A stretch of DNA of 64,000 nucleotides, taken from the NCBI GenBank assembly GCA_963666365.2, contig CAXXNF010000001.1:1-64000 (forward strand). Direction: 5' to 3'. Shown here piece after piece: positions 1 to 45,272 of this stretch; the first letter of the stretch is position 1; each line of letters begins with the position of its first letter. The notes under the pieces are model-generated. The model was given only the letters and a program-made list of their open reading frames with translations. It was not told the origin of the DNA and made no database searches. Source of the stretch: Syntrophales bacterium. GTDB taxonomy: Bacteria > Desulfobacterota > Syntrophia > Syntrophales > UBA2210. The position numbers and the translations under genes are program-made.

Positions 1-3000
1 TGATGTGCTGGTGTGCGTCGAGGCGTCGGTGACGGTGAAGCTCCCTGTGGCCTTCTTGAAGGCGAGGCTCCCCGTCGAGGCTGACAAAGCCGAAGACGTC
101 CAGGGTCAGGTTCGTCATGGACCGCCAGCAGCACCCCCTCGTCGCCGTCGATGTCAAGCACCACATCGGCCGTGTCGGGGCCCGTGGCGATGGTCACGCT
201 GGCCGCGGTGGTGTCGGTGGTGTTGATCGTCTCGTCGCTGTTCACGAAGTCGAGGACGCTGTTCGGGGCCGTGAGGCTGCTCGTCTTGTTCACCTCTACG
301 GATAAAGTATTTACTGATGCGGTCAGGCCGTCGATCCCTACGAGACCGGCGCTCGCCACATCGGCCTTCAACGCCATGTAGTTCACGTCGTCGGTGGTCA
401 CTGCGGTGCCCTTGGTGTCCCCCACCATAAGGATGCCGAAGTCCACGCCGTGTGAGTGCGAAGCCGATGCTCCCCACGCCGGCGAAGGCACTATTCACAT
501 GACCGCCCACTTCCAGGTAGCTGACATTGGTCAGGGCGGTGGAGGTTGTGCGTCGAGGCGTCGGTGACGGTGAAGCTTCCCGTGGCCTTCTTGAAGGCCA
601 GGCTCCCGTCGAGGCTGACAAAGCCGAAGGACGTCCAGGGTCAGGTTCGTCATGACCGCCAGCAGCACCCCCTCGTCGCCGTCGATGTCAAGCACCACAT
701 CGGCCGTGTCGGGGCCCGTGGCGATGGTCACGCTGGCCGCGTTGGTGTCGGTGGTGTTGATCGTCTCGTCGCTGTTCACGAAGGTCGAGGACGGTGTTCG
801 GGGCCGTGAGGCTGCTCGTCTTGTTCACCTCTACGGATAAAGTATTTACTTCAGCGGTCAGGCCGTCGATCCCTACGAGACCGGCGCTCGCCACATCGGC
901 CTTCAACGCCATGTAGTTCACGTCGTCGGTGGTCACTGCGGTGCCCTTGGTGTCCCCCACCATAAGGATGCCGAAGTCCACGCCGGTGAGTGCGAAGCCG
1001 ATGCTCCCCACGCCGGCGAAGGCACTATTCACATGACCGCCCACTTCGAGGTAGCTGACGTTGGTCAGGGCGGTGGAGGTGTGCGTCGAGGCGTCGGTGA
1101 CGGTGAAGCTCCCTGTGGCCTTCTTGAAGGCGAGGCTCCCGTCGAGGCTGACAAAGCCGAAGACGTCCAGGGTCAGGTTCGTCATGACCGCCAGCAGCAC
1201 CCCCTCGTCGCCGTCGATGTCAAGCACCACATCGGCCGTGTCGGGGCCCGTGGCGATGGTCACGCTGGCCGCGTTGGTGTCGGTGGTGTTGATCGTCTCG
1301 TCGCTGTTCACGAAGTCGAGGACGGTGTTCGGGGCCGTGAGGCTGCTCGTCTTGTTCACCTCTACGGATAAAGTATTTACTGATGCGGTCAGGCCGTCGA
1401 TCCCTACGAGACCGGCGCTCGCCACATCGGCCTTCAACGCCATGTAGTTCACGTCGTCGGTGGTCACTGCGGTGCCCTTGGTGTCCCCCACCATGAGGAT
1501 GCCGAAGTCCACGCCGGTGAGTGCGAAGCCGATGCTCCCCACGCCGGCGAAGGCACTATTCACATGACCGCCCACTTCCAGGTAGCTGACATTATTTAAT
1601 GATGTGCTGGTGTGCGTCGATGCGTCGGTGACGGTGAAGCTTCCCGTGGCCTTCTTGAAGGCGAGGCTCCCGTCAAGGCTGACGAAACCGAAGACGTCCA
1701 GGGTCAGGTTCGTCATGACCGCCAGCAGCACCCCCTCGTCGCCGTCGATGTCAAGCACCACGTCGGCCGTGTCGGGACCCGTGGCGATGGTCACGCTGGC
1801 CGCGTTGGTGTCGGTGGTGTTGATCGTCTCGTCGCTGTTCACGAAGTCGAGGACGCTGTTCGGGGCCGTGAGGCTGCTCGTCTTGTTCACCTCTACGGAG
1901 AGGGTGGTCACTTCAGCGGTGAGGCCGTCGATCCCTACGAGACCGGCGCTCGCCACATCGGCCTTCAACGCCATGTAGTTCACGTCGTCGGTGGTCACTG
2001 CGGTGCCCTTCGTGTCCCCCACCATGAGGATGCCGAAGTCCACGCCGGTGAGTGCGAAGCCGATGCTCCCCACGCCGGCGAAGGCACTATTCACATGACC
2101 GCCCACTTCCAGGTAGCTGACATTGGTCAGGGCGGTGGAGGTGTGCGTCGAGGCGTCGGTGACGGTGAAGCTCCCTGTGGCCTTCTTGAAGGCGAGGCTC
2201 CCGTCGAGGCTGACAAAGCCGAAGACGTCCAGGGTCAGGTTCGTCATGACCGCCAGCAGCACCCCCTCGTCGCCGTCGATGTCAAGCACCACATCGGCCG
2301 TGTCGGGGCCCGTGGCGATGGTCACGCTGGCCGCGGTGGTGTCGGTGGTGTTGATCGTCTCGTCGCTGTTCACGAAGTCGAGGACGCTGTTCGGGGCCGT
2401 GAGGCTGCTCGTCTTGTTCACCTCTACGGATAAAGTATTTACTTCAGCGGTCAGGCCGTCGATCCCTACGAGACCGGCGCTCGCCACATCGGCCTTCAAC
2501 GCCATGTAGTTCACGTCGTCGGTGGTCACTGCGGTGCCCTTGGTGTCCCCCACCATGAGGATGCCGAAGTCCACGCCGGTGAGTGCGAAGCCGATGCTCC
2601 CCACGCCGGCGAAGGCACTATTCACATGACCGCCCACTTCCAGGTAGCTGACATTATTTAATGATGTGCTGGTGTGCGTCGATGCGTCGGTGACGGTGAA
2701 GCTTCCCGTGGCCTTCTTGAAGGCGAGGCTCCCGTCGAGGCTGACGAAACCGAAGACGTCCAGGGTCAGGTTCGTCATGACCGCCAGCAGCACCCCCTCG
2801 TCGCCGTCGATGTCAAGCACCACGTCGGCCGTGTCGGGGCCCGTGGCGATGGTCACGCTGGCCGCGGTGGTGTCGGTGGTGTTGATCGTCTCGTCGCTGT
2901 TCACGAAGTCGAGGACGCTGTTCGGGGCCGTGAGGCTGCTCGTCTTGTTCACCTCTACGGATAAAGTATTTACTTCAGCGGTGAGGCCGTCGATCCCTAC

Positions 3001-3830
3001 GAGACCGGCGCTCGCCACGTCCGCCTTCAACGCCATGTAGTTCACGTCGTCGGTGGTCACTGCGGTGCCCTTGGTGTCCCCCCACCATGAGGATGCCGAA
3101 GTCCACGCCGGTGAGTGCGAAGCCGATGCTCCCCACGCCGGCGAAGGCACTATTCACATGACCGCCCACTTCCAGGTAGCTGACGTTGGTCAGGGCGGTG
3201 GAGGTGTGCGTCGATGCGTCGGTGACGGTGAAGCTCCCTGTGGCCTTCTTGAAGGCCAGGCTCCCGTCGAGGCTGACGAAACCGAAGACGTCCAGGGTCA
3301 GGTTCGTCATGACCGCCAGCAGCACCCCCTCGTCGCCGTCGATGTCAAGCACCACGTCGGCCGTGTCGGGGCCCGTGGCGATGGTCACGCTGGCCGCGTT
3401 GGTGTCGGTGGTGTTGATCGTCTCGTCGCTGTTCACGAAGTCGAGGACGCTGTTCGGGGCCGTGAGGCTGCTCGTCTTGTTCACCTCTACGGATAAAGTA
3501 TTTACTTCAGCGGTGAGGCCGTCGATCCCTACGAGACCGGCGCTCGCCACGTCCGCCTTCAACGCCATGTAGTTCACGTCGTCGGTGGTCACTGCGGTGC
3601 CCTTGGTGTCCCCCACCATGAGGATGCCGAAGTCCACGCCGGTGAGTGCGAAGCCGATGCTCCCCACGCCGGCGAAGGCACTATTCACATGACCGCCCAC
3701 TTCGAGGTAGCTGACGTTGGTCAGGGCGGTGGAGGTGTGCGTCGAGGCGTCGGTGACGGTGAAGCTCCCTGTGGCCTTCTTGAAGGCGAGGCTCCCGTCA
3801 AGGCTGACGAAACCGAAGACGTCCAGGGCG
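1..3830 (-). repeat. Tandem coding repeat, 531-bp (177-aa) unit, 7 full copies plus a partial
   Basis: The anchor gaagacgtccaggg recurs at about 3814, 3284, 2752, 2221, 1690, 1159, 626 and 92. Unit: LDVFGFVSLDGSLAFKKATG...VLLAVMTNLT. Confidence 0.97.
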
Positions 3831-6800
3831 ACGTTGCCGGCTGCCTCGATCAGCTCCCCTTCCGCGCCGTCCATGTCGATTGTAAGGCTGGTCCCCGGAC
3901 CGGTCAGCACCTCCAGGTTGCGCGCGGCAAAGTCGATGACCTGATCATCTGCCTTCCCTGCCTGATTGATCTTCACTGAAAGAGACGTGGATGAAGCCGT
4001 AAATCCGGTAATGCCTGTCAAGGCAATGCTGTTTGCCGTGGCCTGCAGTGTCGTCCATGTCCGCGTTATATCCGCTCGGCTGGTGAACAGCACCAGGGCA
4101 AAGTCAACTTCTTCCAGGGAAAGGCCCAGCGCGCTGTCGCCGCCGCCGTTCACTCCCGCAAAGGCGTTCAATCCGCCACCGCCCACGGCGAGCATGTCGG
4201 TGACGACTTCCGTCGTCCCGTCGGCAAGCACTACCGTCTCGCTGGATTTCTCAAAGGCCAGATTGCCTTCAAGCATGAAGAATCCGAAAAGGTCCAGCGT
4301 CATGTGACCGTATGCGCGGATCAGATCGCCCTCGAGGCCGTCCATGGTGAGCGTCAGGGTCGTGGCGGGACCGGTTGTTATCTCCATGTTCTGAACGGCA
4401 AAATCCACCACCAGGTTCGGATCGGCATCGGGAACGATATCCGGACGCGCTATCGACTCGCCTTTGGCTTCCACTGTCAGTGTGGCCGAGGCCACATCAG
4501 GCGTCGCCGTCACTTCCAGCAGCGGAAGGTCCGTGCCACCAAGGCTCCCGCCGAATTGAACATCCCATACCCCGGAAGAAATGTAGGTCGCGGTGAACTG
4601 CGCACCCGCAAGGTCTGTAAATGCCGCTGCCAGGGCTGACTGCACGTCCGACGCCGTGGCAGTAAATCCGATCGCCATCGTCGTGCGGGTCATGCTGTCG
4701 TATGTCAAACTCAGGGTGAACGTGCCGCCGCCTTCTGCTTCTATCCGCACGCGCTGCACTTCGTCTACCGCCGCCGTGCTGTAGGTTGTGCTCTCCGTTC
4801 GCGTCAGGCCGCGTTCAATTACCAGCAGCGTACCCGTTACCGGCGCCACCGTCGTGGCTACCGTCATGCGCGCGATTTCCTTCCCGGTAAAGCTGCCGCC
4901 AAAGACTACATCCCATATTCCCCCGGCTGAGCTGCTTACGGTGACACTTGCCCCTGCAATCGTAACGAAGGCCGTGTTCAGCGCATCCTGAACCTGCACC
5001 GCCGTCGCATCGAAGGACAGTGACGCTGTCGTATAGGTTGTCCCTTCGTATGAAAGCGAAAGGGTGAAGTCGCCGGCAGATTCGGATTGTACCCGCACCC
5101 GCTGCTCGGCCGATACGTCGGTCACCGTCTCGGTAGTCGTCTTCGACTGCCCCTCAACCGACGTCGATACGACGACCGTTACGTTGCTCGACGATACCAC
5201 GGTGATTTGCGGAACATCCTGATAGGCGAGTGCACCGGTAAAGGTCACGAAGTAACGGGGCGCCGCAGATGTTGATTTCTGATCGAACTCTACATAGACA
5301 TTCCCCTTCTTTATCGTCGTTAAACTCTCCAGACCCGCCTGCAGTATCGCCCGGTTATAGGTGGGACTGTTCACCGAAAAATCGAGAAGTCCCGTGGTCA
5401 GACCGTTGAACTCCAGCTCATAACGGGTGTTCGTGCTCCGGAATCCATCAGAAAAAGATATGATCTGACGCTCGCGTACATTGGCGCCCGTCGTCTCCGT
5501 GCCGGTCACCACCTGCCCGCCGGCCACTATCGTGGTGACGGATGCCTCAACTCCGGGTGTGCGCACCGACAGCTGCAGGTCGCTCAGATCCTTACCGGCA
5601 CAGTCGTTTATAAACTCAATCGCATAACCGGCGGCACGGGTCCCGCTTACGGTGACATTGCCCGCACCTACTGCCGCAAAACCTGAAAGCGCTGTCGTCA
5701 GCAATCCGGAAAGCGCCGCATCGCTCGTACCCGCCGCTATATCAACGCTCCGTGTCTCTCCCCTCAAGGTAAAGACCAGAGCACCTGTCTGGATATCGGT
5801 CTCCAGTGTGAGTTTTGTGTTTACCGTAACCGGCGTCAGCTCGACATCTGTCTGCTCAGGCACTCCGGCCACACGCTCGATTACCGCCGTGGATACCTCG
5901 GGGCTCTCCGCCCGCACCGTCAGGCCGCTCAGGTCCTGACCAAGTAATGTGTTATTAAAGGTGAGAATGAACCCTTCCGCCCGCGTACCGCTTATTGTGA
6001 CATTGCCCGCTCCCACTCCGGAAAGACTCTCGAGAGCGGATCTGAGCTTCACCCACATTATTGTCGTCGTATCCTCAGCCGTTACCTGCACTTCGGCTGT
6101 CTCGGCGTCAAGCCCGAAAACAAGCGTTCCCACCGTCAGGTCCGTCTCAAGCTTAAGCACTGTCGCCGTCAGCTCCGGATTCTGCGCAACCGGCGTCCCG
6201 GCACTACCGATGTTGCGGTTGATCTCGACGGTCAGGGTATCCACTTCCACCGTCAGGCCATCGACGCCCACGAATCCCAAGGAACCGACCTCGCTCTTCA
6301 GGGCCATCCATTTGCGCGCCGGATTCGACGAATCCGTTATGAGCGCCAAGGCAAAAGCGGCATCGGTCAAATCGAAACCAAGAGCGGACTCAGTGCCGCC
6401 GTTGAGACCGGCAAAGGCGGTCACTTCGCTCGCGCCGATTGTGATCAGATCGACGTCAACCGAACTGCCGTCGGAAAGACGAACGCTGCTGCTGGAACTG
6501 ACAAAGGCAAAGTTTCCGGACACGAGAAAGAAATCCGCAAGCTCGATCTCTACCGTCCCCGATGCCTGGATCAGTTCTCCATCGGCGCCGGCCATCTCGA
6601 ACGTTACGGTGTCTTCTGGGCCTACGGAGACCGCCAGTGGATCAGCCGAAAAATCTATTACCGTACTGTCGGCGGCAGACAGATTCAGCTCAATGCCGAA
6701 TGTGGTGACGCTCAGCGTCAAACCGGGAATGCCCACCACCGAGGCGCTGCCCACCGAACCCTGCAGCGCCGTCCAGCTCCGCTGCGAACCGCCTTCTTCG

Positions 6801-9800
6801 CTCATCAGTGCAAGCGCAAAGTCAACTCCTGAAAGCTGAAGACCTATCGCATGGTCAGTGCCGCCGCTGTACCCGGCAAAGGCCGAAAGATCACTCCCTC
6901 CGATCGTCAGCAGGTCTGCGGTAAGGGCACTCTCCCCTGTAGGCTTCACCGATTGGGTATCCATATGAACCGCAACGTTACCCGAAATCTGCACGAAGCC
7001 GCCCACGGACACATTGGCATTACCGATAGCTACCTCCAGAAGCGTCGATGATGCTTCCATCGTACCGAAGGTATAGACAAGCTCACATGCCGCTATTGAA
7101 ACACCGGTATATGCGATACCTGTTTCGTTCAGCCGAACCGATACCGTGTCTGCACTGAGGGTTACCGAATCTCCGGCAACGGCATAAAGCGAGCCGGATG
7201 CTTCAAGCACACGGGTCCCGCTGTTTACCACCAGACCCAGTGAAGCGTTTTCTACACCGACCGCAAAATCACCGGCACCGAGAAATGCACGGGCGCTTTG
7301 TGCAATCACATGCATCGTGTCGCCATCTGCTTCAAATCCGAAATCACCGGCAATCTGCAAACCACCGCCCAGACTGGCTTCGAGACCCGTCACCGAAACG
7401 CTCTTTAATGTTGAAGAGGCGGGGAGGGAGGCGAAGGTATACCGCACATCTCCCACCGATACTGATTGACCCGTATACAACTCGCCGGTGGTGTTGTAGC
7501 GCACCAGCACCGATGCAGCCGTCATAGAGGCGAATCCGCCGCCCACCATCGAAAGGGCGCCCGAGGCCTCAAGGGCTACGTTGCTGTTCTCATCTATTAC
7601 AAGACCCAGGCTTGCGCTGCTGACACCGACTGAGAAGGAACCGGCGTTCACCGATGCAGCCGCATCAGTGGCCACCGCCTTCACAACCGAACCCTCCTTC
7701 AGAAAGCCGTAATTTCCGGAAAGAGAGAATATCCCCCCCAACTCGCAGTCAAGACCGGTTACGTAGACACCGCGGATTGTCGTAGATCCGGGAAGTTCTT
7801 CAAAACCGAAGCTTGTACCTCCCGCTGATATCTCCTGACCGATATAGGGAATACCCGTCTCGTTCAGAAGCACCTTCACCTTGTCGGCGCTGCAGGCAAA
7901 GCCGGCGCCTTCCAGGACAAGGGTCCCGTCAACCTCGAATGCCTTTGTGCCGTCTCCCCTGATCACAAGACCGAGGGAACCGTTGTCAACCCCTACCTTG
8001 AAATCACCTACACTGAGAATCGCTTCCGCATCCGACGCAATAATTTGAACATCCGAACCGTTCTTTTCAAAATCAAAATTGCCGCCGATCAAAAATACGC
8101 CACCGAACTCGGCCGTCAATCCCGTGATCGATAGGGCCACCAACGACGTCGATGCAGGAAGGTTCGTAAAGGTGTAGCTCACCTCGCCCACCGATACTGT
8201 CTGACCAGTATAGAGTGCACCGGTGGTGTTGTAGCGCACCAGAACCGAGGTCGCCGTTACCGAAGCAAATTCTCCGCCCGAGATCGCGAGGGCGCCCGAG
8301 GCTTCCAGGGCGACGGCGCCCGACTCGTTCAACACCAGGCCCAGCGTCGCCGCACTCACTTCGACGGAAAAAGATCCCGACTGCAACGTGGCGGTCACAT
8401 TCCGTGCCCCTGCCCGTATCACCGTGTCGGGACTGGTGCCAGTCTTTTCAAATCCGAAATCCCCGGTTACCGATACGAATCCGCTTATGCCCAGGCTGAT
8501 CCCGGTTCCCTGGATCACGATGATTTCCGTTCCATCGTCAAAGGAAACCGTTACATCGCCGCCGGAGGTGGTGACCGTCTCGTTCACCGCGGCGCCGGTC
8601 TTGTTCACTTCGGCAGCGAGGGTCGCTGTAATGCTGAAGTTATTATAGCCGACAAGTGTACCGGTCCCCGACGCGTACAGCGCATAGACAGAAGGAGTAC
8701 CTTCAATGATTACCAGACCGAGCGTGGCGCCTGTTATTTGAACCCCCCGGGCATTCTCGGTACCGTACCCGGTACCCATAAAGATGGTCACATCGGTGGC
8801 CCCGGCCACAATTTTCATATTGGGAGAAGCGCCGGTTTTTTCGAATCGAAACGATCCGGAGAGAACCGCAAAGGAATCGATCGTAAGAGAGGCGCTCCCG
8901 GCGATCCTCACAAAGGCGCCTTCCGTGAAATCAAGAGTTGTGGTCTGACCACCCACAGTGATCGATTTGCTGACCGCCCCACCGGTATTATTGAACTCCG
9001 CAGCCATGGCCGCCGTCATGGCAACCCCGGAAAGACCGCTGAGACTCACCGTCCCGTTTGCCTTGCCGGCCGTCCCCGACGCGGTCATAAAGAAGGCGCC
9101 GGCGCCTTCCGTCAGACTTACCGATGCGCCTCCGGCGGCGAAGACCATATTCACATTTGCTGCAGCAACACTGTAGTCGTCACCGCTTTTTTCAAAGGTA
9201 AAGCTTCCTCCCATGCTCTGACCAAGTACGGTCACCGAACCGGTGATGCCGATGGAAACTTCCGACGTTTTGCCGGCAAACCAGGCGAGCAGTTCGTCCA
9301 TGGTCGAGGGGGATCCTTCGTCAACGGCGATATCCACATCGCCGCCGGGCGTCTCGGCCACTTCGAGCATGTAGGCGCTGCTATCCGCGTCAAGGACCGG
9401 CTTGAAGTAGAGACCACCGCCGATCTCCAGTCCGGTGAAGGATGCAAAATCACCCGTCACAGACCCGAAGGTCATGAAGGTGAAGGTCTGTCCGAGGGTG
9501 GGGGTATAGGTGTCGAGCAGGTCTATGGCCAGGGCACCGTCGAGGGAGGCGAGATTCGCCACATTGATGACGTCGTAGTCAGTACCGGAGAGGGGGCCCC
9601 ATATCTCGATCAGCAATGTCCCATCGGATAACTGGGTGAAGCTGTCAACGTTGTCACTGCCGGGAGAATGTCCGGGACTGTAAATACCTTCGTTCAGGAA
9701 GGACTCGTAATCCGAATCGGTCTCTTCGGCGACACTATATATAAGGGATATGATTTCCGATGAACCGGCAGGGTAAAAAGTCAGGCCGGAAGATTCCGCC

Positions 9801-10792
9801 TTCAGGCGCCTGAGTTCTTCCAGAGAAATCAGGCCGTCGGATCCGGTCAATGCCTCGACATCCAGGAGGCTCTTCGCCGTCAGATTCGAGCCATCATCGA
9901 AGTAAACGGTTGTTTCGGCTGACAGGCTATAGATGGCAAGATAAAAAGAGCCATCAACATCGGGATCGAGTCCGATGGCAAGGGACGCGTCATAATTGAG
10001 CGACAGCGCTGTAACTGAATGATTTTGCGCAGCATACAGCAAATCAAGCGCCGCACACAGTTCAGACGCCGACCCGAGATTAATAGCGGAACCCAAGGCA
10101 ACACTCATATGCACACTGCCGGATTCGCTACTCAATTCTCCGGTTACATTGAAATATGTATCGCCCTGCGCCTCGTTTTGCTGCAAAAGGGCGAGAAGGT
10201 ATTCAAGATTTTGCGCGTCGGGGGGGTCCAGTGCATCCCCGTAGTATTCATACACGGGGGTCATAAGTCGAGTGTCAAGAAGTTCATAAAATGCGATGCC
10301 GGTGGCTCCGGTATCGGTCGTGAGGCTTTTGAAAAGGGCGAAGATTTCTTCTTTTTCGACTTCAACCGCCCTATCCGCAAGCAGATCAAGCCCCTCAACG
10401 AGGGCATCCGTATCCAGTGAAGCGGCAGCAACTGCCGGTGTCGAGTCCTCTTCCGATCCATCGTCGGTACTGGAATGTTCAAGATCGCTCTTGTCAGTTG
10501 ATGCTGAATCGGAGAGTAGATCCAGATCAGCCAGATCCTGGAACAGGTCGTCGTTTCCTTCCCCAAAACCCTGAAAAAAAGTGTCCGATGAGGCCGTTGC
10601 CGAGCTTCCGTCGGCAGTGAGCACAATCTCTTCAACGGCTGAGGTGGATGCAATCCCTTTGGAAAGAAGATCTTCCTGATCGATCTGCCAGGCCGCGGCA
10701 GCCCCCAGCAAGGGATCCGCAGAAAGCATCACCCGCTGCTCGAGCGCTTCAAGCTCAAATAACCTATCCGGATCTATCCGCGACATCGGCAT
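1..10792 (-). CDS. Giant repetitive extracellular protein with N-terminal LEPR-XLL motif; 3' end outside the window; broken by single-base insertions
   Basis: ORF 2975-10792 (2605 aa) starts MPMSRIDPDRLFELEALEQRVMLSAD (LEPRxLLSA-type motif). It is Gly/Ser/Thr/Ala/Val-rich with beta-strand repeats. The same repeat reading continues in ORF 688-3150 and below after +1 insertions at about 3080, 783, 630, 547, 451, 120 and 70. Confidence 0.9.
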
Positions 10793-10911
10793 CTACTTCT
10801 TGTTACGTCGGTTAAAAACCCCTGCAAAACAGTACACTCGAGCAGCAAAAGTTGTCACTGCACGAACTTTCAGCGCGCGTCACCAATTCCATACCGTTCC
10901 ACAGAAGTTCT

Positions 10912-11059
10912 GAGACCTGTTTTGCAGAACCTCATAAAATCATCAATTTCGTCATACCGGCAGGTCCCGGATCAAGTCCGGAAGGTATCCAGTTTTTTCA
11001 AGCACTTTCTGGATTCCGGGTCAAGTCCAGACAGAAAAGGGGAATTATGCAAAGGTCTC
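10912..11059. repeat. MITE/REP-like palindromic element, copy 1
   Basis: Ends GAGACCtgTTTTGCA...TGCAAAGGTCTC. Internal GTCATACCGG...ATCCAG...CTGGATTCCGGGTCAAG palindrome. Aligns with 27605-27726. Confidence 0.7.
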
Positions 11060-11253
11060 GTTCTTTATACGTTTTAAAGATCACGCCGGCATTTGCTCAT
11101 GCTGCGCGTATCGGCGGGAGCGATCAGTCTCCCTTATTTAAATGATGTCTAACACTACCTGTCTCCCTCATGTTTAGCAACTAAAAAATGACCTCTACAC
11201 TGTGACACATTTCACACTGAGGCTGTTTTTTACTGCGAAACCGAAAAGGGCGA

Positions 11254-13245
11254 TCAGAATTGTGCCGACGTTCCTGTAAAAGACAGCGCCTCTTCAAGCC
11301 ACGTATCCATCTTGAGCACATTCCGTCTCTGGCGGAACGCCATACGCTGGGCCGCTCTCTGGGCCTGCAGCACAGCCTGATGGGCCAGGAGCGCTCCACC
11401 GGGAATTCCTGATTTCACGGCGACCGCCAGTTGCCGTCTCAGTACGGCAGGAACAAAACGCCGGATAAGCTCGTCATCGGCGCTCATATAGGCCTGCGCG
11501 CTTCCCTTGTCTCCCTGGCGGGAACAGCGGCCGAAGAGCTGCCGATCTATTCTTCCCGACTCATGTCGTTCCGTGGCGATTACGTGCAATCCTCCGAGTT
11601 CAGCGATTCCCCGTCCCAGTTTTATATCGGTCCCTCTGCCCGCCATGTTCGTCGCGATGGTAATGCGCCCATACTCCCCCGCAGCCGCCACGATGCGGGC
11701 CTCTTCCTTGTGTCTGACTGCATTGAGAAGATTGAATTCCAGACCTTTGGCCGTGAGCATGTCCGCAAGCCGTTCACTGGCCTTCACGCTGCGCGTTCCC
11801 ACCAGAATCGGTCGTCCGCGGGCGTGCATATCACTGATGTCATCGACAATAGCCCGCCACTTTTCCTCCTCGCCGGCATAGGTCCTGTCGGGGAATACTT
11901 CTCGTATACAGGGCCGGTTTGTGGGTATCGCCATCACCGGCAGGCCGTAAATATGCCAGAACTCGCCGGCGGCCTCCTTTGCGGTACCGGTCATACCGGA
12001 GAGCTTCCTGAAAAACCGGAAGAATCTCTGAAAACTGAGCCGTGCAAGGGTTTCGCTGGGATTGCTGACTTCAAGGCCCTCCTTGGCCTCCACCGACTGG
12101 TGCAGTCCATGCCTCCAGGTCCTGTTGGCCATCAATCTGCCGGTAAACTCGTCAACGATGGCCACCTTGCCCTCCTGGACTACATACTGCTTGTCGCGAT
12201 CGTAAAATTCTCTGGCCGTCAGCGCCTGGGTCACCAATTCCTCGCGCCGGGACGCTCCCTGCCATATGGCCGGCATCAGAGCGGCCATATCCTCGATTTT
12301 CCTTTCCCCCTCCTTGGTAAGCCGTATTTCACGGTACTTCATGTCCACCTTGTAATCAGCGTCACGCACCAGACGGGAACAGACCTGATAGGAGGAGGCA
12401 CAGGCATCCACAAGAGGCTGATTTTCCTGCGCTCTTGAAATGATAAGGGGCGTTACCGCCTCGTCTATCAGCAGACTGTCCGCTTCGTCCACGATCACCG
12501 TATCTATTCCCCGCTGGACAAGCCCCTGAAACGCCCGAATCCGCGGCTGCAGTGCATAGCGAAGCGCCCTTCGTTCAGCATTCTGGTACCGTCCCAGTAT
12601 GATGCGGTCTCTCAGAAAATCAGCCACCAATTCTTTGCTGGTAGTGTAGACGATCCCCCTGCCGTAGTTCTCCTGCCGTTCATGCGGGTCCATCGTTCCG
12701 GTCACACTGCCGACGGTGACGCCGCAATAGGAATAAAACGGCCGCATCTCTACTGCATCGCGGTCTGCCAGATAATCGTTTATCGTCACGATATGACAGG
12801 GTCTTCCGCTCCATCCGGCAAGCGCGGCGGCAAGTGAGGCGGTCAGGCTCTTTCCTTCACCGGTCGCCATTTCGATAAGATAGTCGTCATGGAGTGCCAT
12901 GGCCCCCCAGACCTGCACCATGAAGGGCCTGAGTCCCAGCGTGCGCTCCGCCGCCTCCACCAACAGCGCAAGGGATTCATCCACTATATCATCGGAAGTC
13001 TTTTCAATGCGTCTGAATTTTTCTGCAAGTTCCGCCAGACGGGAGGAAATTCTGCGGTCCGCTACATTGCGCATCACCTTCGACTTCTCCAGTATCGCCT
13101 CGGCCCTCATGCGGTATTTTCGAAAACGGTCGGGCAATACCCTGTACTTTCCCACAAGCCCGTAGACTACGTTGTCCAGCCCCTGGTGAAGTTTTGCGGG
13201 GGTGACAATTTTGGTTCGACGGTAATCCTGAGCCGGGATCATCAT
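11254..13245 (-). CDS. Accessory SecA-like DEAD ATPase, C-terminally truncated (663 aa)
   Basis: Motifs MATGEGKS, VTINDYLADRD, IVDEADSLLIDEA.TPLIIS, TNMAGRGTDI and RHESGRIDRQL.GR..RQGD.GS. ATG at 13245 overlaps the upstream stop codon (ATGA). Confidence 0.93.
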   Translation of the reverse strand: MMIPAQDYRRTKIVTPAKLHQGLDNVVYGLVGKYRVLPDRFRKYRMRAEAILEKSKVMRNVADRRISSRLAELAEKFRRIEKTSDDIVDESLALLVEAAERTLGLRPFMVQVWGAMALHDDYLIEMATGEGKSLTASLAAALAGWSGRPCHIVTINDYLADRDAVEMRPFYSYCGVTVGSVTGTMDPHERQENYGRGIVYTTSKELVADFLRDRIILGRYQNAERRALRYALQPRIRAFQGLVQRGIDTVIVDEADSLLIDEAVTPLIISRAQENQPLVDACASSYQVCSRLVRDADYKVDMKYREIRLTKEGERKIEDMAALMPAIWQGASRREELVTQALTAREFYDRDKQYVVQEGKVAIVDEFTGRLMANRTWRHGLHQSVEAKEGLEVSNPSETLARLSFQRFFRFFRKLSGMTGTAKEAAGEFWHIYGLPVMAIPTNRPCIREVFPDRTYAGEEEKWRAIVDDISDMHARGRPILVGTRSVKASERLADMLTAKGLEFNLLNAVRHKEEARIVAAAGEYGRITIATNMAGRGTDIKLGRGIAELGGLHVIATERHESGRIDRQLFGRCSRQGDKGSAQAYMSADDELIRRFVPAVLRRQLAVAVKSGIPGGALLAHQAVLQAQRAAQRMAFRQRRNVLKMDTWLEEALSFTGTSAQF

Positions 13246-15398
13246 ATCTGGTACCTCTTCTGAAGCAGCTGAAGCAGCTTTCTGCCCCACTGAACCAAAA
13301 GGGCCTCGGAATCAAGGGTGAATCGCAACTTGCCCGATCTCCCGTGCACAAACATGACCTTATTCTGCGGCGCCACTGAGGCATATATCTGAAAAAAGGG
13401 TTCCGCAGCCTGAATGCCCTTTTCGTCGGAGGGGGACACCGCCACCTGCCCTCCCCCGCGCCAGCCCAGCGCTGCCGAGGGAAGTTTCTCGAACTGAAAG
13501 GGTATTATCTGAATGTCGGTGACTTCCAGATTTTCACCCACCTGCCCATAGAGGCGCACTTCCGCCTTTCGTATCTGATCGACGAACAGGTTGGACGCCT
13601 CTTCCTGGGACACTACCGCCGAGAAACGAAAGACCTCCGGGTCGACGATTTCACCGAGCATTGTGCCCCTCGGCAGCCACGACCCCACCATCTCGGTACT
13701 TCGCGGAGATACCCATATGCCGCGCTGTCTGGCACGCACAGTAAGCTCTTCCACCTGCCGCTGAAGGTTCTGCAAATTCGCTTCGATTGTTTCCAATCGT
13801 TTATTGATGGGCTCTATATCGGCTGATCTTTCCGTACGCGCCCGCAACATCATCGCCAGCGTCTCCTCCCGCTGCGCCCGGACTTTTTGAATTTCCAGTT
13901 CCAGCTCCCTGTCTTTAAGCAGCATCAGCGGCATCCCCGGGGAAACCTCCGTTCCCGAAGGCGCCGACACTTCACGCACATAGCCCGGCGCATCGTTCAC
14001 CACCCGCATGTAATTGACCGATTCGAGCACCCCGGGGGCCCTGAAGCGATTCGGCGCCGGGAATATGAAAAGAAGACCGAAAATCAGGCAGAAAAGCAGC
14101 AGGCTCACCCCGACCGCCCGTATACGATTCCTGGCCAGTTTGGGACTGGAGGCAAGATAGACCACAAATTTGTAGAGCGGTACCACGCCCCAGGCAAATA
14201 CGCAGAAAAAGGCCATTATGAGACCGAGGATGAGAAATTTATCGGCCACAAAAAGGATAATGCCGGTAAAGACCACCACCTTGTAGATGCCGCTCAGGAT
14301 TCCGAAGACGGTCAGCCAGAAGGCCTCCTTCCCCGTTTCCGCCGGGCTCTGTGAATCGCGGCAGCCGAAGAGGTAATACTCGAAAAGATGCCGGAGATGA
14401 CGATTTGATCTGGTGCTTAGATTAGGGATATCCATAATATCCGACAGGATATAATAGCCGTCGAACCGAAGCAGCGGGTTCGCGTTAAACAGCACCGTTG
14501 AGACCGAAGCGACTACCATCATGTTATAGGCGATGCTGTGCAGGATGCCCGGTGCGGAATATGCCCAGTAAAAGGCGGCCAGCGCCGCAACGAATATCTC
14601 GGCAATCATCCCGGAGGCGCCTACAAGCGCCCGCTGCCACCGACTGCGAAAGGACCAGCTGGAAGTGGCGTCTATATAAGGCAGGGGGGTAAAGACCAGC
14701 AACATTACCCCCATGACATGCACCTCTCCCCCGAATCGTTTGCATACGAAGGCATGACCGAATTCATGAATCGTTTTTACGACAACCAGTCCGACATAGA
14801 GCAGGGGAAGATTGGCGGGCACCAGTATGCCTTGGAATTGTGAAGTGGCGGCATCAAAATTGTCGAAGACCACCTTCAGCGCGGCAGCGACGACCGCAAG
14901 CCAGACAATCGCGCCTGCGGGACCCACAAGAAGCTTCAGCAGCAGCGTGATGCGACGGAGCATGAACTCCGGATCGAGCAGGGGAAGCCGGAAAAACATA
15001 ATGCTCAGGAACTTGGAACGGACCTCCCGGCTGCGGCGCTTTTTGTAGCGCTCGAAGAGTTTGGCACTGTCCGCGGGCACATCAAAATAGAGAAGGTTTG
15101 CGAAATAGAGCTGCGTCAGCAGCTGGAGCACGTCTTCCTGACCGGGCGCCTTGTCCGGGCTCCGACTGAGGCATTCCTCCCACACTTCCTCCACCGTGCG
15201 GGTTCGGCGCAGCCTTATCACAAATTCATAGGCTTCCGGGCGAAGGCGGAAATACTGGTTGTTAAAGGGATCGTACAGCACATACCAGATTTCCCCCCTG
15301 AAGAGCTGCTTTCTCGCCTTGACCGTCGGACCGAGACTGATCCTGAGTTTGGCGATGCGATGCCAGGACTCGCTGAATGTTCTCCCGGACTTTGCCAT
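13242..15398 (-). CDS. PqqD-like N-domain + M50 (site-2) metalloprotease membrane domain + HlyD/MFP domain fusion
   Basis: HEFGH and NANPLLRFDGYYILSD M50 motifs with several TM helices. The C-terminal part has a lipoyl/coiled-coil MFP pattern. The N-terminal YVLYDP...YFRL...TVEEVWE...LLTQLYFANLL resembles a winged-helix RRE. Confidence 0.85.
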   Translation of the reverse strand: MAKSGRTFSESWHRIAKLRISLGPTVKARKQLFRGEIWYVLYDPFNNQYFRLRPEAYEFVIRLRRTRTVEEVWEECLSRSPDKAPGQEDVLQLLTQLYFANLLYFDVPADSAKLFERYKKRRSREVRSKFLSIMFFRLPLLDPEFMLRRITLLLKLLVGPAGAIVWLAVVAAALKVVFDNFDAATSQFQGILVPANLPLLYVGLVVVKTIHEFGHAFVCKRFGGEVHVMGVMLLVFTPLPYIDATSSWSFRSRWQRALVGASGMIAEIFVAALAAFYWAYSAPGILHSIAYNMMVVASVSTVLFNANPLLRFDGYYILSDIMDIPNLSTRSNRHLRHLFEYYLFGCRDSQSPAETGKEAFWLTVFGILSGIYKVVVFTGIILFVADKFLILGLIMAFFCVFAWGVVPLYKFVVYLASSPKLARNRIRAVGVSLLLFCLIFGLLFIFPAPNRFRAPGVLESVNYMRVVNDAPGYVREVSAPSGTEVSPGMPLMLLKDRELELEIQKVRAQREETLAMMLRARTERSADIEPINKRLETIEANLQNLQRQVEELTVRARQRGIWVSPRSTEMVGSWLPRGTMLGEIVDPEVFRFSAVVSQEEASNLFVDQIRKAEVRLYGQVGENLEVTDIQIIPFQFEKLPSAALGWRGGGQVAVSPSDEKGIQAAEPFFQIYASVAPQNKVMFVHGRSGKLRFTLDSEALLVQWGRKLLQLLQKRYQI

Positions 15399-15399
15399 A

Positions 15400-17274
15400 T
15401 CACCACCACAGAAGCATTCGGAAAAAGTCTACCGTGCGGTGCGTCACAATCCACAGCACATTTCTCTTTCCCACGTTAATCTTTGTGATGCCGGTCATAC
15501 CGGGACGCCACCAGGAAGGAATGTCCTGCTGGACCTGTGCCCTCACAAGAAATACACTCCCCTCTTCCTTGGCCAGCGCCACCGGGTCGATACGTTCCAC
15601 CACAATGGGAAACTTCAGTTCCGGCCGGCTGACAAAGGCGATCTCTCCATCGGAACCGACGGAGATTTCATGTATATCGCGTTCCTTGACTTCAATTTCA
15701 GTATAGAGCATCGCCAGGCGGGCCACCTTGAACAGCACATCCCCTTTTCTTACCGGGGCACCGAGCAGCTCTTTGAGATCCCCTTCCACAATGATCCCAT
15801 CGAAGGGCGTTTTGATCTGCGCATTGGCAAGATGATACCGTACGAGGGCCAGCTGGGCTTCCGCCTGATCCGCCAGGGCCCGGGCGATTTTCATATCGGC
15901 AAGGGCGTTTTGGGCCCGGGCCTTTTCGGCTTCACGGATGTATCGATGCTGATTGGCCAGGGCGTTGGACTCCTCCAGAAGCAACTCGCGGGTATCAAGA
16001 GACAGCAAGGGGTCGCCCTTTGCAACCACATCGCCGACCCTCACATGGACATCACTGATATAGCCTTCGAATGGCGCCGGCAGATAGGCAAGATCATCGG
16101 TCTTGACGATGAAATTCCCTTCCACCCGATAATTCAAATGTCCGAAAAGCATGAAGGCGAGCGCAACCGCCAGGATCAGTCCCAGCAGTTTCGGAAATGT
16201 ATGCTCCACTCCCAGGAACCATGCACACCCTTCCCGGACCGAGGATACCGCTCGCGCGCCGAACCATCGATCGTGTTTCTTGAGATCGGACATCAGTCGC
16301 GCCGTCTGATCGCACATAACCCGCAGCCCCCGCACATCCCATTCGGTAAAGGGCTCGGTGCGTTCGCAACTGAGTACCGCCACAGGTTCCTCATCTGCTC
16401 GTATCGGCAGGGACACCATATGTTCAGTGCCTTGGGTCCGGCAGTAGGACTCGTGATCCCTAACGACCGTAAAGGCGCCTTCGGGTCGGGGATAGAGGAC
16501 CTCCTCGTCCTGGTCGAAGGCCTCTTCCATGGCCGCTTCCAGCCCCTGCACGGAATCCATCTTCTTTTCGAACTGCTCCATGTGGCTGATGGCCTGTACC
16601 CTGATATAGGCATCCTTAACCCATCCCAGAGCCACTCTCTGGCAACGGTACCGGGCGGCCACCTCGTTGCACAACGCCATCGCAGCCCCCATGAACTTCT
16701 TTTCCCTGTTGAGCACCGCCATGAGATCGAGGGCTTCCGAGAACAGCACCACGTCATTTCGGGCCTGCTGCGCCATGCGGTTCATCTGATAGGTGGTAGG
16801 AATGCCGGCCACCAGTTGGAGCCGCAGGAAGAGTTCTTCCAGAATATCCTCTCCTGCCCCTTCAACAAAAAACACAACCACGCTTCGCCGTCCCTCGTCC
16901 TGAATTTCAAGCCGAAGGCCCAGGGTGACGCCGGAAGGACTGCCTGCGCCGGGCACACCCGACGTTGTCCAGGCCCTGCCGTCGGCGCCGGATTCATCGG
17001 CGATCTGCTCTACCACAGGCCCCAAACCCAATTTGCGCACTTCACCAACGCCGCCTCTGGGCCAGAGAGAGACCGTTTTCCAGGCGTCTTCTTCATCCCC
17101 CCGGATCAGGAGAAATCCAAAACGGGCCCCTGCCAGCATGGATGCCCCTTCCAGAAAGGCGGGCCAGAAATCCTGCGGCTGACCCTCGAAATGCCGTAAC
17201 TGCTCCAGCGTCTGGAGCAACTGATCCATTCTTTCTTGAGGGTTTTCATATTCTCGTTGGCTGTGCAACATCAC
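15400..17274 (-). CDS. GAF domain + HlyD-family membrane fusion protein
   Basis: GAF-like RVALGW...AAMEEAFDQ...VSLPI...VAVLSCER, one TM helix, then APFEGYISDVHVRVGDVVAKGDPL and WWRPGMTG. Confidence 0.85.
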   Translation of the reverse strand: MMLHSQREYENPQERMDQLLQTLEQLRHFEGQPQDFWPAFLEGASMLAGARFGFLLIRGDEEDAWKTVSLWPRGGVGEVRKLGLGPVVEQIADESGADGRAWTTSGVPGAGSPSGVTLGLRLEIQDEGRRSVVVFFVEGAGEDILEELFLRLQLVAGIPTTYQMNRMAQQARNDVVLFSEALDLMAVLNREKKFMGAAMALCNEVAARYRCQRVALGWVKDAYIRVQAISHMEQFEKKMDSVQGLEAAMEEAFDQDEEVLYPRPEGAFTVVRDHESYCRTQGTEHMVSLPIRADEEPVAVLSCERTEPFTEWDVRGLRVMCDQTARLMSDLKKHDRWFGARAVSSVREGCAWFLGVEHTFPKLLGLILAVALAFMLFGHLNYRVEGNFIVKTDDLAYLPAPFEGYISDVHVRVGDVVAKGDPLLSLDTRELLLEESNALANQHRYIREAEKARAQNALADMKIARALADQAEAQLALVRYHLANAQIKTPFDGIIVEGDLKELLGAPVRKGDVLFKVARLAMLYTEIEVKERDIHEISVGSDGEIAFVSRPELKFPIVVERIDPVALAKEEGSVFLVRAQVQQDIPSWWRPGMTGITKINVGKRNVLWIVTHRTVDFFRMLLWW

Positions 17275-17365: not shown

Positions 17366-18241
17366 TTACTCACTCTTTAGATCGACTTCCATAGTCGCCG
17401 CAGTGCCCGGTCGGACCGCATTGTCCATGTTTTCAAACTCCACTTTCACTTCCATCAGACCGCTCGCCGAGTCAACCAGCGGGGACACGAATGAAATCGT
17501 ACCCTTTTTCCGGACGGACGTGCCACCGGTTCCGATCACAAGATCGACCTGCTGCCCGACTTTGAGAAATCTTCCGATATTTTCCTCCAGGTTGCTGACA
17601 AAGCGTCCGCGGCCGGTATCCACCACACGGACAAGCGGCTGGTGCTCTTCGAAACTCTCCCCCTCATCATAAAACAGTGTGATCACCGTTCCATCTATGG
17701 GGGACCGAAGATTTCGCTTTTCCAGCGTCTCCACTGCTATTTCGTATTCAATTTTCTCGCGTTTTTCCGCGGCGGCAAGCCGATCTCGTTCCGCGACGGC
17801 CAATCGCAGTTCCAATTCCTGTTTTTTCAGTTCTTCTTCACTGACGGATTTCGTCGATTTAAAGAGCATGAGCGTCGCATCATATATTTCCTTCAATGTC
17901 CGCGCGCGGGCCTGGGCACCTTCATATTCCGACTTGCTCTCCCAGACAAGCTTGCGCCGCGCGACTTCCAGTTCCTCTGTGCGCTTGTCAAGATGGAGAA
18001 TCCGCTGACCCTTGCGCAGGCGATCCCCCTCTTTGACGGATATGGTGGACACTATGCCGGGAACGGACAGACTCAATGTCACATCGCTGATCGGCTCGGT
18101 AATCCCTGATATCCCGATCGGCTCCCGGGCAATGCATTCCCCGCCACAAGAAATTGCGATACTGCAGGCGAGGACACACAGCAACACAGCACGCACAGAA
18201 AAGCGCCTTCCTGAAATTCCACCTTCTTTGCTCATTATCAC
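17366..18241 (-). CDS. RND/HlyD-type periplasmic adaptor (MFP)
   Basis: N-terminal hydrophobic segment, VPGIVSTISVKEGDRLRKGQ, coiled coil, LRSPIDG and VRPG motifs. Confidence 0.88.
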   Translation of the reverse strand: MIMSKEGGISGRRFSVRAVLLCVLACSIAISCGGECIAREPIGISGITEPISDVTLSLSVPGIVSTISVKEGDRLRKGQRILHLDKRTEELEVARRKLVWESKSEYEGAQARARTLKEIYDATLMLFKSTKSVSEEELKKQELELRLAVAERDRLAAAEKREKIEYEIAVETLEKRNLRSPIDGTVITLFYDEGESFEEHQPLVRVVDTGRGRFVSNLEENIGRFLKVGQQVDLVIGTGGTSVRKKGTISFVSPLVDSASGLMEVKVEFENMDNAVRPGTAATMEVDLKSE

Positions 18242-19806
18242 GACTCCTTGCTGAGATCTATTCCATGCATCTGGAGCAGCGTGCCTTTGACTGCCTCGAG
18301 CGCCACCAGCGCCTTTTCGACATTGACAAGACTTTCCAGATAATATTCCTTCGCCCTGTTCAGCTCTTCGTCCCGCTCCAGAACCAGCCTGCTGTTACTT
18401 TTTCCTGCACTGAGACGGGCCAGTTCGACTTCAAGCAGCCGTTTGTTGATCTGTACCGCCGACGCATAATTTTTCCCCTGCGCCACGGCATTCATTACAT
18501 TTTTAATCGACGTGTCAACGGCATTGGCAAGAGCCACTTCCGTTGCCTTCAATTCCAGCAGTATCTGCGCCTTTCTTTTTTTCGCCGCCGCCAGTTCGCT
18601 TTTTGTCTTCTTGCCCCCCATGAGAGGGATGCTGAGTTCAAGACCGACAGACCAGCTTTCATAGTCCATGCCCTTGGCCACATCCAAAGAGTCAATGGGC
18701 CCGTCGTTGTCGCGATCGAGCCCGTTGACGCCATAGCTGGCCTTGAGATCCAGCTGAGGCCATCGCTGATTTTCCGCGTAGGCGATACGTATGCCTTCCC
18801 TTTCCACCTTCATGAGTGCGGAAAGATATTCGGGGCGATTTTTTATGGACTTCAGATAACTGCTTTCGTACTCGACTGCCACCTCCCTGGCGGCGAGATT
18901 GTCCATGGCGATCACCATGCCGTCCATATCTCCCATGGGAAGAGACAACAATGTCTTTATATTGTTCACCGCCGCCGTCAGCTCCTGGCTCGCGGCAATT
19001 TCCAGTGATTTTCTTAGGGCCAGGCCGGCCTCCGCTTCGAGCACCTCGGTCTCGGCCATTTTCCCGGTCCGAAATCGCTCTTTGTTGTCTCGCAGGATAT
19101 CTTCGGCAATTCTGAGCGATTCGCGCCTCACCTTGAGCTTTTCCTGGGCCAGACACAGATTCCAGTATGACGAGGCGGCTTCGGCCACCACCTGAAGCAG
19201 CTCCCTTCGGTACCCCTGAAGGGAGATTGCGGATTCCTTTTCGGCCACACGGATATTGGCCATGGTCGTATCGACGCCGGCGTTTTTCAGGAGCGGCTGC
19301 ACGACGGTGGTTCCTACAAAGGTCTGGTACTGAGAATCGTAGGCATAATTATCCATCAGACTGTTTTGCAGCCGTTTCAAAGAATAGCCAAACCGCACCT
19401 GGGCGCCGGTGGGAAGCACCCCTTCGACGGCGGCGTTATATTCGTTATTCCGCTTCCAGTAATTATCGTTGCCGGAATCCATGAAACCGATGCTTGAATA
19501 ATCTTCCACTGTTTTGGGAATGTGGCTTTTATCATGAAGGTAGGATGCCACGAAGCGAGGCTCGAAAATGGACCCGGCGCTTTTCACGGCATCCCGGCTG
19601 ATGTCCCATTCAAGTTTCTGGTAGCGAATCCTCTCGTTCCTCTCGCAGACTCGTGCAATCAGCTCGTCGAGACTGAGATGCCAGTCCGCGGCGCCGATCC
19701 TCCCGTGCGTCGCAGGATCCTCCCCCCAGACAAGGCTGAAGGGAGATAGGAGGGCGGCCACTACAAAGACAATCACTGCACAGGGCCAAAACATTCTGCC
19801 TTTCAA
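18238..19806 (-). CDS. TolC-family outer-membrane channel
   Basis: Signal peptide, QPLLKNAG, AYWNL-like helix, RPEY and WPQLDL motifs, with two OEP-like repeats. Confidence 0.88.
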   Translation of the reverse strand: MKGRMFWPCAVIVFVVAALLSPFSLVWGEDPATHGRIGAADWHLSLDELIARVCERNERIRYQKLEWDISRDAVKSAGSIFEPRFVASYLHDKSHIPKTVEDYSSIGFMDSGNDNYWKRNNEYNAAVEGVLPTGAQVRFGYSLKRLQNSLMDNYAYDSQYQTFVGTTVVQPLLKNAGVDTTMANIRVAEKESAISLQGYRRELLQVVAEAASSYWNLCLAQEKLKVRRESLRIAEDILRDNKERFRTGKMAETEVLEAEAGLALRKSLEIAASQELTAAVNNIKTLLSLPMGDMDGMVIAMDNLAAREVAVEYESSYLKSIKNRPEYLSALMKVEREGIRIAYAENQRWPQLDLKASYGVNGLDRDNDGPIDSLDVAKGMDYESWSVGLELSIPLMGGKKTKSELAAAKKRKAQILLELKATEVALANAVDTSIKNVMNAVAQGKNYASAVQINKRLLEVELARLSAGKSNSRLVLERDEELNRAKEYYLESLVNVEKALVALEAVKGTLLQMHGIDLSKES

Positions 19807-45224: not shown

Positions 45225-45272
45225 ACATCATAAGGCAAAGACAAACGAACACACCAAAAGGAGGAAAAGGAT

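Follow-up and report, generated by a model that had tools for sequence, protein, structure and literature searches.

The question raised by the first 19,806 nucleotides of the window (the whole 64,000-nt stretch analyzed here, from a Syntrophales bacterium) is how a protein of giant size may leave the cell through a set of genes in which a TolC-family duct, three periplasmic adaptors and a short paralog of SecA are present and no ABC (ATP-binding cassette) transporter is found. Position 1 of the window is position 1 of contig C1, and the genome consists of two contigs (4.0 Mb, 94% complete). The answer that we favor from sequence comparison, and to which a probability of about 0.55 is given, is that the operon would encode a dedicated machine for the export and maturation of proteins carrying an N-terminal LEPR-XLL tag, guided by this leader and dependent on the TolC-like duct. 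The cargo here is probably an acidic RTX giant (at least 16,600 residues), together with two further tagged giants.

Positions 1-19806 are filled by six genes, all on the minus strand, as established with the list of open reading frames (ORFs) and with Pfam and NCBIfam. They are given below together with two elements of the giant gene.

18238..19806, minus strand: TolC-family outer-membrane factor (OMF), 522 aa, with an N-terminal signal-like hydrophobic stretch (PF02321 OEP, E 5.2e-39).
17366..18241, minus strand: short periplasmic adaptor (MFP), 291 aa (TIGR01730 RND_mfp, 118 bits, cut-off 94.9; HlyD_D23, E 7e-16).
15400..17274, minus strand: GAF-adaptor (GAF-MFP), 624 aa (PF01590 GAF, E 1e-7; HlyD_D23, E 1.4e-17).
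13242..15398, minus strand: fusion of an RRE/PqqD-like domain, an M50 protease and a MacA/MexA-like adaptor (the M50 fusion), 718 aa (Peptidase_M50, 27.3 bits, cut-off 27.2).
11254..13245, minus strand: short SecA paralog, 663 aa from the ATG at 13245 (SecA_DEAD, E 1.5e-89; PPXD, E 3.3e-28; P-loop_SecA, E 2e-57).
1..10792, minus strand: 5' portion of the giant gene, its frame uninterrupted for 2,605 codons and broken after that; the rest lies on contig C2 (C2:1-39175).
10694..10759, minus strand: LEPR-XLL N-terminal tag of the giant, residues 12-33 (FELEALEQRVMLSAD...; LEPR-8K NF012209, 28 bits, cut-off 17).
1..3877, no strand assigned: array of ~7 near-identical repeats of 531 nt (177 residues), 94-98% identical by self-BLAST.

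The five co-oriented genes upstream of the giant had been named TolC, MFP, GAF-MFP, PqqD/M50-MFP and short SecA in an earlier reading made from the sequence only, and all of these assignments were confirmed by Pfam and NCBIfam. Start and stop codons had been described there as mostly overlapping or abutting, which holds for the OMF/MFP and M50 fusion/SecA junctions (4-nt overlaps) and for the 1-nt spacer between the GAF-adaptor and the M50 fusion, but not for the 91 nt between the short MFP and the GAF-adaptor. The spacer between SecA and the giant gene measures 461 nt. With TIGR01844 the OMF scored 105 bits, below the cut-off of 225, and the short MFP, in which a VLAC motif was recognized by eye, is probably a lipoprotein. 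The GAF-adaptor is made up of ~360 cytoplasmic residues with the GAF domain, one membrane span and then the MFP domain. With the type I model TIGR01843 (type_I_hlyD), 51 bits were reached against a cut-off of 208.65.

No gene for an ABC or an RND (resistance-nodulation-division) transporter is present in the region, as had been noted before, and none was found by Pfam in the rest of the window. An ABC ATPase probe, checked on the window's genome (71 matches in 4.0 Mb), gave matches above 40 bits at 3 of 49 loci (878 kb), with ~15 expected from the density in the genome. The genome contains no HlyB-type ABC transporter, the best match reaching 359 bits against the TIGR01846 cut-off of 725, and no HlyD-type adaptor over its cut-off; its single ABC_membrane gene encodes an MsbA-like protein of 597 residues with no adaptor nearby. 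One SecY match and no SecY2 were detected. Homologous loci contain no conserved dedicated ABC gene, and the short SecA is not the sole SecA of the genome: the check for a housekeeping secA elsewhere, proposed with the sequence-only reading, returned a SecA in a frame of 876 aa on contig 2, and the short SecA is an accessory paralog.

The giant gene starts at 10792 and its frame is open from 10792 to 2975 (2,605 codons). The earlier count of one frame of more than 3,590 codons within the window was not upheld, since the frame is intact for 2,605 codons only and is then broken three times, by shifts near 3040, 690 and 490 that lie inside near-identical repeats (unit lengths of 531, 532, 531, 531, 531, 533 and 535 nt). 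Tandem Repeats Finder reported nothing in 1-11300, its longest period being 500 nt and the repeat unit 531 nt. At the start of contig C2, ~37 further units of the 531-nt repeat occupy 19.6 kb, oriented so as to continue the giant gene. The ~44 copies in all (94-98% identical) led to the assembly gap, and C1 and C2 each carry a part of the giant gene. When joined, the giant comprises ~16,600 codons and ends at C2:39175, with two further frame breaks on C2 (at least five in total); this length is a minimum that leaves out the repeats lost at the contig gap.

No Pfam family was found in the first 2,605 residues of the giant. Its last 3,500 residues contain 44 GGxGxD motifs and match HemolysinCabind (RTX) with E 1e-70, its isoelectric point is 4.05, and its cysteine content is 0.08-0.19% versus 1.41% in the long ORFs of the genome. 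This acidic, Cys-poor, RTX-containing composition is typical of proteins exported unfolded. The absence of a Sec signal peptide, also noted previously, was sustained by a crude check, in which the best 15-residue Kyte-Doolittle mean in the first 70 residues was 1.29. In a genome-wide search with LEPR-8K the tag of the giant scored 35.9 bits, and two more LEPR-XLL genes were found, at C2:64711-93666 (9,652-residue frame) and C2:2367392-2378938 (3,849-residue frame). A simple tag pattern run over the 1,288 long ORFs in the genome picked out these three genes and no others, in agreement with the curated model, and residues E15, E18 and R20 of the tag are invariant in 12 giant N-termini. The genome holds a single cassette and three LEPR-XLL genes, and one machine may serve three cargoes. 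Additionally, giant-like fragments in other frames follow the stop of the giant in C2:39176-64373, and after them comes an open frame of 7,438 residues with RTX, FG-GAP and MAM-like domains in its first 2,000 residues and no tag by the genome-wide LEPR-8K search; this frame may be a separate untagged giant or the continuation of the first giant through further breaks.

The link between cassette and cargo was also observed outside this genome. Eight loci were obtained in a search with the short SecA. The gene order of the window is kept in 6 of the 7 loci from Thermodesulfobacteriota, the seventh being cut by a contig end; an OMF orthologue occupies the same position in 6/7, and the short MFP is also conserved in the cassette. 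The remaining locus, from Verrucomicrobiales, contains the GAF-adaptor, the M50 fusion, the short SecA and the duct. A tagged giant lies directly downstream in 5 of the 8 loci, and in the other three the contig ends within ~310 nt of SecA. In samples of the window's phylum and of Verrucomicrobiota, 24 of 301 and 46 of 201 genomes, respectively, contained the M50 fusion, and a search of 1.84 billion representatives with its profile collected 6,184 clusters (E <= 1e-30). The LEPR-8K model was over its cut-off in 9 of the same 301 genomes, and the M50 fusion was present in 7 of these 9 versus 17 of the 292 others, counts that are indicative only, related genomes being non-independent and giants often unassembled. 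With regard to the co-occurrence survey proposed with the sequence-only reading, the ABC-less cassette is conserved across Thermodesulfobacteriota and Verrucomicrobiota, beside LEPR-XLL giants. Frames of 19,211, 15,080 and 9,417 aa were found for giants beside cassettes. These belong to three loci of the window's phylum (L045, L047 and L048, in genomes G201, G034 and G255, with giant frames of 19,211, 9,417 and 15,080 residues, respectively), in which the order is giant, GAF-adaptor, M50 fusion, short SecA and short adaptor, with no duct gene within 10 kb.

The protein that could read the tag is the M50 fusion. Its layout comprises an RRE/PqqD-like domain (~18-105), an M50 part with the motifs HEFGH (211-215) and NPLLRFDG (307-314), and an adaptor part (~447-716) that matches MacA, MexA and AcrA (E 1.6e-11). 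In the full AlphaFold2 (AF2) model (pLDDT 72.5), a helical membrane region (~143-445) separates a small N-terminal domain from the adaptor, which has a short hairpin. Residues H211, E212, H215, N305, N307, P308 and D313 are invariant in 15/15 M50 fusion sequences, and because these zinc-binding and catalytic residues are invariant the protease is presumably active. The curated families nearest to the M50 part are RiPP (ribosomally synthesized and post-translationally modified peptide) leader peptidases: daptide_HExxH (E 3e-50, 171 bits versus 300) and YydH/LiaK (E 3.5e-5, 23.6 bits versus a cut-off of 225). The idea that the M50 domain is the inner-membrane component of the exporter had to be revised, as it looks more like a leader peptidase joined to an RRE than like a pore.

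The N-terminal domain, modelled alone (pLDDT 82), was compared with 48,161 representative chains. The best match was a lasso peptide B1 protein with its leader (6jx3_B, Z 9.7, rmsd [root-mean-square deviation] 2.9, 84 aligned residues), and further RRE matches were TbiB1 with its leader (5v1u_A, Z 9.3), PqqD (5sxy, Z 8.7) and the RRE of PbtF (8t19, Z 7.1). The RRE layout, a three-stranded sheet followed by three helices, is matched as well; unrelated enzymes bearing a winged helix-turn-helix also reached Z 8-9. Because it is predicted to be N-terminal to an odd number of membrane spans, as read from the AF2 model, the RRE-like domain is placed in the cytoplasm. When residues 1-135 were co-folded with the first 45 residues of the giant, a score of 0.49 was obtained (best of three controls 0.00; at least 67% of contacts shared between runs), with a pLDDT of 45-47 for the partner. 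In the calibration of this procedure 116 of 157 solved complexes and 2 of 215 mismatched pairs attained the mark, and scores of 0.60 or less comprised only 18 of those 157 complexes, plus both mismatches that passed.

The short SecA is the candidate motor. Its longest ORF is 11254-13290 (GTG start at 13290), and 663-aa homologues place the start at the ATG at 13245; among the 120 matches listed of 8,000 scored, the homologues are uniformly 663-678 aa long. Residues 74-666 align to residues 34-604 of the 778-residue SecA chain 7xha_A, and we take the protein to extend from NBD1 through the PPXD and NBD2 into the beginning of the scaffold helix, with wing, two-helix finger and C-terminal tail missing. 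It scored 607 bits with TIGR00963 (cut-off 800) and 421-527 bits with the SecA2 models TIGR03714, TIGR04221, TIGR04397 and NF012136 (cut-offs 725-1100). The ATPase motifs MATGEGKS, DEADS and NMAGRGTDI are present, and the Walker A motif, the DEAD-like box and motif VI were each found in 26 of 27 short SecAs. The sequence LKMDTWLEE was considered as a general C-terminal docking motif and rejected, being present in only 9/27 of them.

A tree was built from 36 SecA sequences of the same phyla (27 short and 9 housekeeping; one partial row excluded) by a quick search that left three long-branch rows. All 27 short SecAs fell on one side of a branch with an SH-aLRT of 100 and the 9 housekeeping SecAs on the other. 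The window's SecA clade is nested in a 19-row clade with Verrucomicrobiota, and eight other Thermodesulfobacteriota sequences form a separate clade; this tree fits a transfer of the cassette between phyla. In public records, several short SecA homologues (P0024, P0031, P0082 and P0115) are labelled 'prepilin peptidase', which does not fit their domains.

In the mechanism proposed here, the RRE/PqqD-like domain of the M50 fusion would bind the LEPR-XLL tag in the cytoplasm, and the short SecA, with its intact DEAD motor and preprotein clamp, would bind the unfolded chain and feed it forward at the expense of ATP, N-terminus first. The inner-membrane assembly that receives the chain would be formed by the M50 fusion and the GAF-adaptor, and the three adaptors would join this platform to the TolC-like duct. 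The tag would be removed by the M50 active site, and Ca-driven folding of the RTX part outside the cell would block back-sliding and make transport one-way.

To place the motor within the cassette, 40 M50-fusion loci with ~10 kb on each side were scored with the window's proteins and classed by the score of the M50 fusion, SecA being left out of the classification.

Class A (M50 fusion at 360 bits or more): 18 loci plus one cut by a contig end; short SecA adjacent in 19/19.
Class B (M50 fusion at 150-360 bits, diverged): 21 loci; short SecA within ~10 kb in 0/21.

On the long adaptor, the GAF domain was found in all 13 class A loci tested and in the window (14/14) and in none of the 12 class B loci tested. 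Because the GAF domain and the short SecA always appear and disappear together, the former is a likely docking or control site for the motor. Four of four Verrucomicrobiota genomes with class A cassettes that were tested have the housekeeping SecA_DEAD gene plus one per cassette. The tagged neighbours of class A have frames of up to 19,211 aa, and at seven class B loci the neighbours are ~500-2,000 residues long and carry the related motif LEALEERIV... Since a core version without motor exists, the motor may be an add-on that evolved for very long cargo. The earlier statement that SecA replaces the ABC ATPase must be restricted accordingly: the short SecA is no universal substitute, being absent from 21/21 class B loci. 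What stood of that interpretation is the conserved ABC-less cassette, the accessory SecA and the adjacency to a giant; SecA as the general substitute for the ABC ATPase and the M50 domain as the inner-membrane component are not supported in the form given there, and one-step export and ATP-driven threading are inferences.

These two classes also bear on another explanation, which we consider unlikely, namely that the core (M50 fusion, adaptors and duct) draws its energy for export from elsewhere, for instance from proton-motive force or extracellular folding, and that the short SecA is a holdase, unfoldase or targeting factor for extremely long cargo. The motor-less cassettes (21/21 class B loci, with one SecA in 6/6 such genomes) would be expected from it, as would the difference in cargo size (~500-2,000 residues at the seven SecA-less loci versus frames of 9,417-19,211 aa beside short-SecA cassettes) and the absence of the two-helix finger and the wing from the short SecA. 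The ATPase motifs and the PPXD are, however, strictly kept, as expected of a working motor, and one cassette linked to a short SecA (L050) has a cargo of only 1,858 aa, contrary to a role limited to extreme length. Moreover, the 4-nt overlap between the SecA and M50 fusion genes suggests matched stoichiometry, contrary to a non-motor role.

The leader-guided machine driven by the short SecA must also be set against several results that weigh against it. In class B genomes only the housekeeping SecA was detected (6/6 tested) and the cassettes are also without any other ATPase (21/21 loci); the short SecA is absent there, and therefore the motor is an add-on that is inessential to the core. None of the components is an obvious inner-membrane protein channel, and M50 proteases are not known to act as conduits. 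Regarding leader binding, Pfam PqqD scored 18.8 bits on the fusion, under the cut-off of 23.4, the best Foldseek match of the isolated N-terminal domain had E 0.018, with none at E <= 0.001, and the support of the co-fold for binding of the tag by the RRE-like domain is weak, the partner's own predicted fold being uncertain. Two of the nine LEPR-positive genomes have no M50 fusion match by the query used. The conservation counts given above include related, non-independent genomes, by which the support is overstated. The frame breaks of the giant may be consensus or sequencing errors in the repeat, or else real lesions or gene decay. Finally, at two class A loci from Verrucomicrobiota (L080 and L084, in genomes G361 and G400) a small ABC ATPase and an OMF lie ~3 kb upstream on the opposite strand. 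The operon at L080 and L084 is without a duct or a short adaptor, and the duct may be shared with a MacAB-like pump.

A two-step route appears quite improbable to us. Here the short SecA would pass the giant into the periplasm by way of SecYEG; after removal of the tag by the M50 protease, export through the adaptors and the duct would follow as in MacAB-type pumps. The adaptor domains resemble MacA, MexA and AcrA of pumps with periplasmic entry, one SecY is present, and SecA paralogs of Gram-positive bacteria can use SecYEG. By contrast, the tag is without a hydrophobic signal core (15-residue mean of 1.29) and the RRE-like domain is predicted to be cytoplasmic, neither of which is expected from a passage through SecYEG. 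The two-helix finger and the wing engage SecY, and both are absent from the short SecA. The role of the wing in SecY engagement is also stated by Kamneva, Poudel and Ward (2015; PLoS One, PMC4452313).

That the cassette matures and exports a small RiPP-like peptide, the giants being merely adjacent and leaving by another route, is very improbable: the M50 part is nearest to RiPP leader peptidases (daptide_HExxH and YydH/LiaK, both below cut-off) and the genome's second M50 protein lies beside YcaO and a weak, below-cut-off radical SAM/B12-like ORF, but the operon has no modifying enzyme, the SecA-giant gap contains no conserved-looking precursor ORF of at least 25 residues, tagged giants adjoin the cassette in two phyla and three gene orders, tag and M50 fusion co-occur in genomes, and no type I ABC system for the RTX giant is found in the genome. 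This second M50 protein (569 aa, locus L066, C2:1838001-1850000) is the only other relative of the M50 protease in the genome; it has no adaptor domain, and besides the YcaO gene the locus contains the ORF with weak, below-cut-off matches to radical SAM and B12-binding families and is adjoined by IS21-type transposase genes. This locus may be a RiPP cluster.

A broader proposal built on the leader-guided export machine is offered tentatively, and we rate it at somewhat less than an even chance. The orphan LEPR-XLL tag would find in the cassette the sorting and export system that it has lacked, a distinct secretion type in which the RRE reads a leader on proteins of up to ~19,000 residues, a SecY-free, SecA-derived motor threads them N-terminus first into the adaptor/TolC duct, and the M50 protease removes the leader. 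With the increasing length of the cargo, a separable module of motor and GAF domain would have joined an older core that had no motor.

Loci of this type have been described before. In the study of Kamneva et al. (2015; PMC4452313), secondary SecA_DEAD proteins without wing and scaffold were reported, whose loci hold M50/HlyD, HlyD and GAF/HlyD genes, sometimes an OEP gene, and no ABC gene. It was hypothesized there that SecA is the ATPase and the M50 protein the membrane part, and the biological role was called completely unknown. The genes META1p2399-2402 of Methylobacterium extorquens AM1, a tractable carrier of the locus, are named in the same study. The sequence-only reading, in which secondary SecA_DEAD genes from comparative genomics were mentioned, arrives in essence at the hypothesis published there. 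The window belongs to the described type, with the same gene set, the same loss of wing and scaffold in SecA, no ABC gene and evidence of lateral transfer. Differences were found as well: the main text of PMC4452313 names no cargo and does not contain the words 'giant', 'adhesin' or 'PqqD', and in the 9 of its 19 supplementary files that were searched 'hemolysin', 'RTX', 'cadherin', 'adhesin', 'LEPR' and 'calcium-binding' are absent. Its text lists Proteobacteria, not Thermodesulfobacteriota by name, and does not describe the RRE fold or the SecA-less variant. In literature searches, the term 'secondary SecA_DEAD' was scarcely used beyond that paper and LEPR-XLL occurred only in unrelated work; searches for SecA/MFP/M50/TolC, for SecA-like with HlyD, for a second SecA with type I secretion, and for M50/HlyD/PqqD returned nothing relevant. 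The cargo link and the recognition of the leader appear to be unpublished.

The resemblance to other export systems is partial. In the type I systems (HlyB-HlyD-TolC; LapB-LapC-LapE), by which RTX proteins and giant adhesins are secreted, a TolC-family duct and HlyD/MFP-type adaptors are used (PMC4452313, PMC8277102); OEP and adaptor domains are present in the window locus too, with scores below the cut-offs of the type I models, and as far as described in these sources their cargo is likewise acidic and Cys-poor, with C-terminal RTX repeats and no Sec signal. In contrast to these systems, the window locus is without an ABC transporter, has three adaptors instead of one and a candidate signal that is N-terminal (the tag) rather than C-terminal, and contains a SecA-family ATPase and a metalloprotease fused to one of the adaptors.

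The proposed logic of the M50 fusion is that of the bacteriocin ABC transporters, in which a cytoplasmic domain recognizes the leader and a protease removes it. In peptidase-containing transporters of this kind, as with the C39-like domain of HlyB, leader recognition, protease and exporter are combined in one protein; the window differs from them in having an RRE and an M50 protease in place of C39 and a SecA-like motor in place of ABC domains. C39 and HlyB are mentioned by West-Roberts et al. (bioRxiv 10.1101/2023.11.21.568195), who describe SecA_DEAD and PPXD domains inside giant proteins of Omnitrophota and Actinobacteria and suggest self-export. A SecA motor without scaffold and wing is tied to giant proteins in both cases. 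There, it forms one domain of the giant and has type II secretion-like neighbours; the 663-aa motor of the window is encoded by a gene of its own, in an operon with adaptors and TolC. The accessory SecA2 of Gram-positive bacteria and mycobacteria is also a second SecA paralog for few, often very large, surface proteins; the window SecA differs from it in being without the C-terminal third and without a SecY2, and in having adaptors and a TolC-like duct as partners.

To the locus in print since 2015, the window contributes a member from Thermodesulfobacteriota with exceptionally large RTX cargo; what our analysis contributes is the link to the cargo, the RRE fold, the motor-less class and the coupling between motor and GAF domain. 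If the proposed reading is true, some of the largest bacterial proteins would be exported by a route outside the textbook secretion types, a SecA motor would not need SecY for its work, and leader recognition by a domain hitherto restricted to peptide natural products would extend to them. The orphan LEPR-XLL tag would also acquire a function, and giant surface proteins of sediment and soil bacteria would become predictable from sequence. The cargo link makes the system testable by mutants of the tag, the motor and the protease.

Other features of the window were recorded next to the cassette. A gene for a DUF4136/TPR lipoprotein at 19920-20699 was considered as a part of the system and discarded, since phmmer gave no match in the related loci and only five in its own genome. 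No small DUF3467 or SapC-like genes were seen in the window. Between ~38000 and 49900 the G+C content is 0.43-0.49, versus 0.52-0.63 elsewhere, and this stretch may be an island; seven consecutive ORFs without a Pfam family lie within it, at 44160-49829. On the plus strand, positions 27885-33021 contain a polymorphic-toxin-like locus, in which an RHS/YD-repeat protein of 1,548 residues with N-terminal Lcl_C and DUF6531 domains is followed by a small RHS-repeat fragment.

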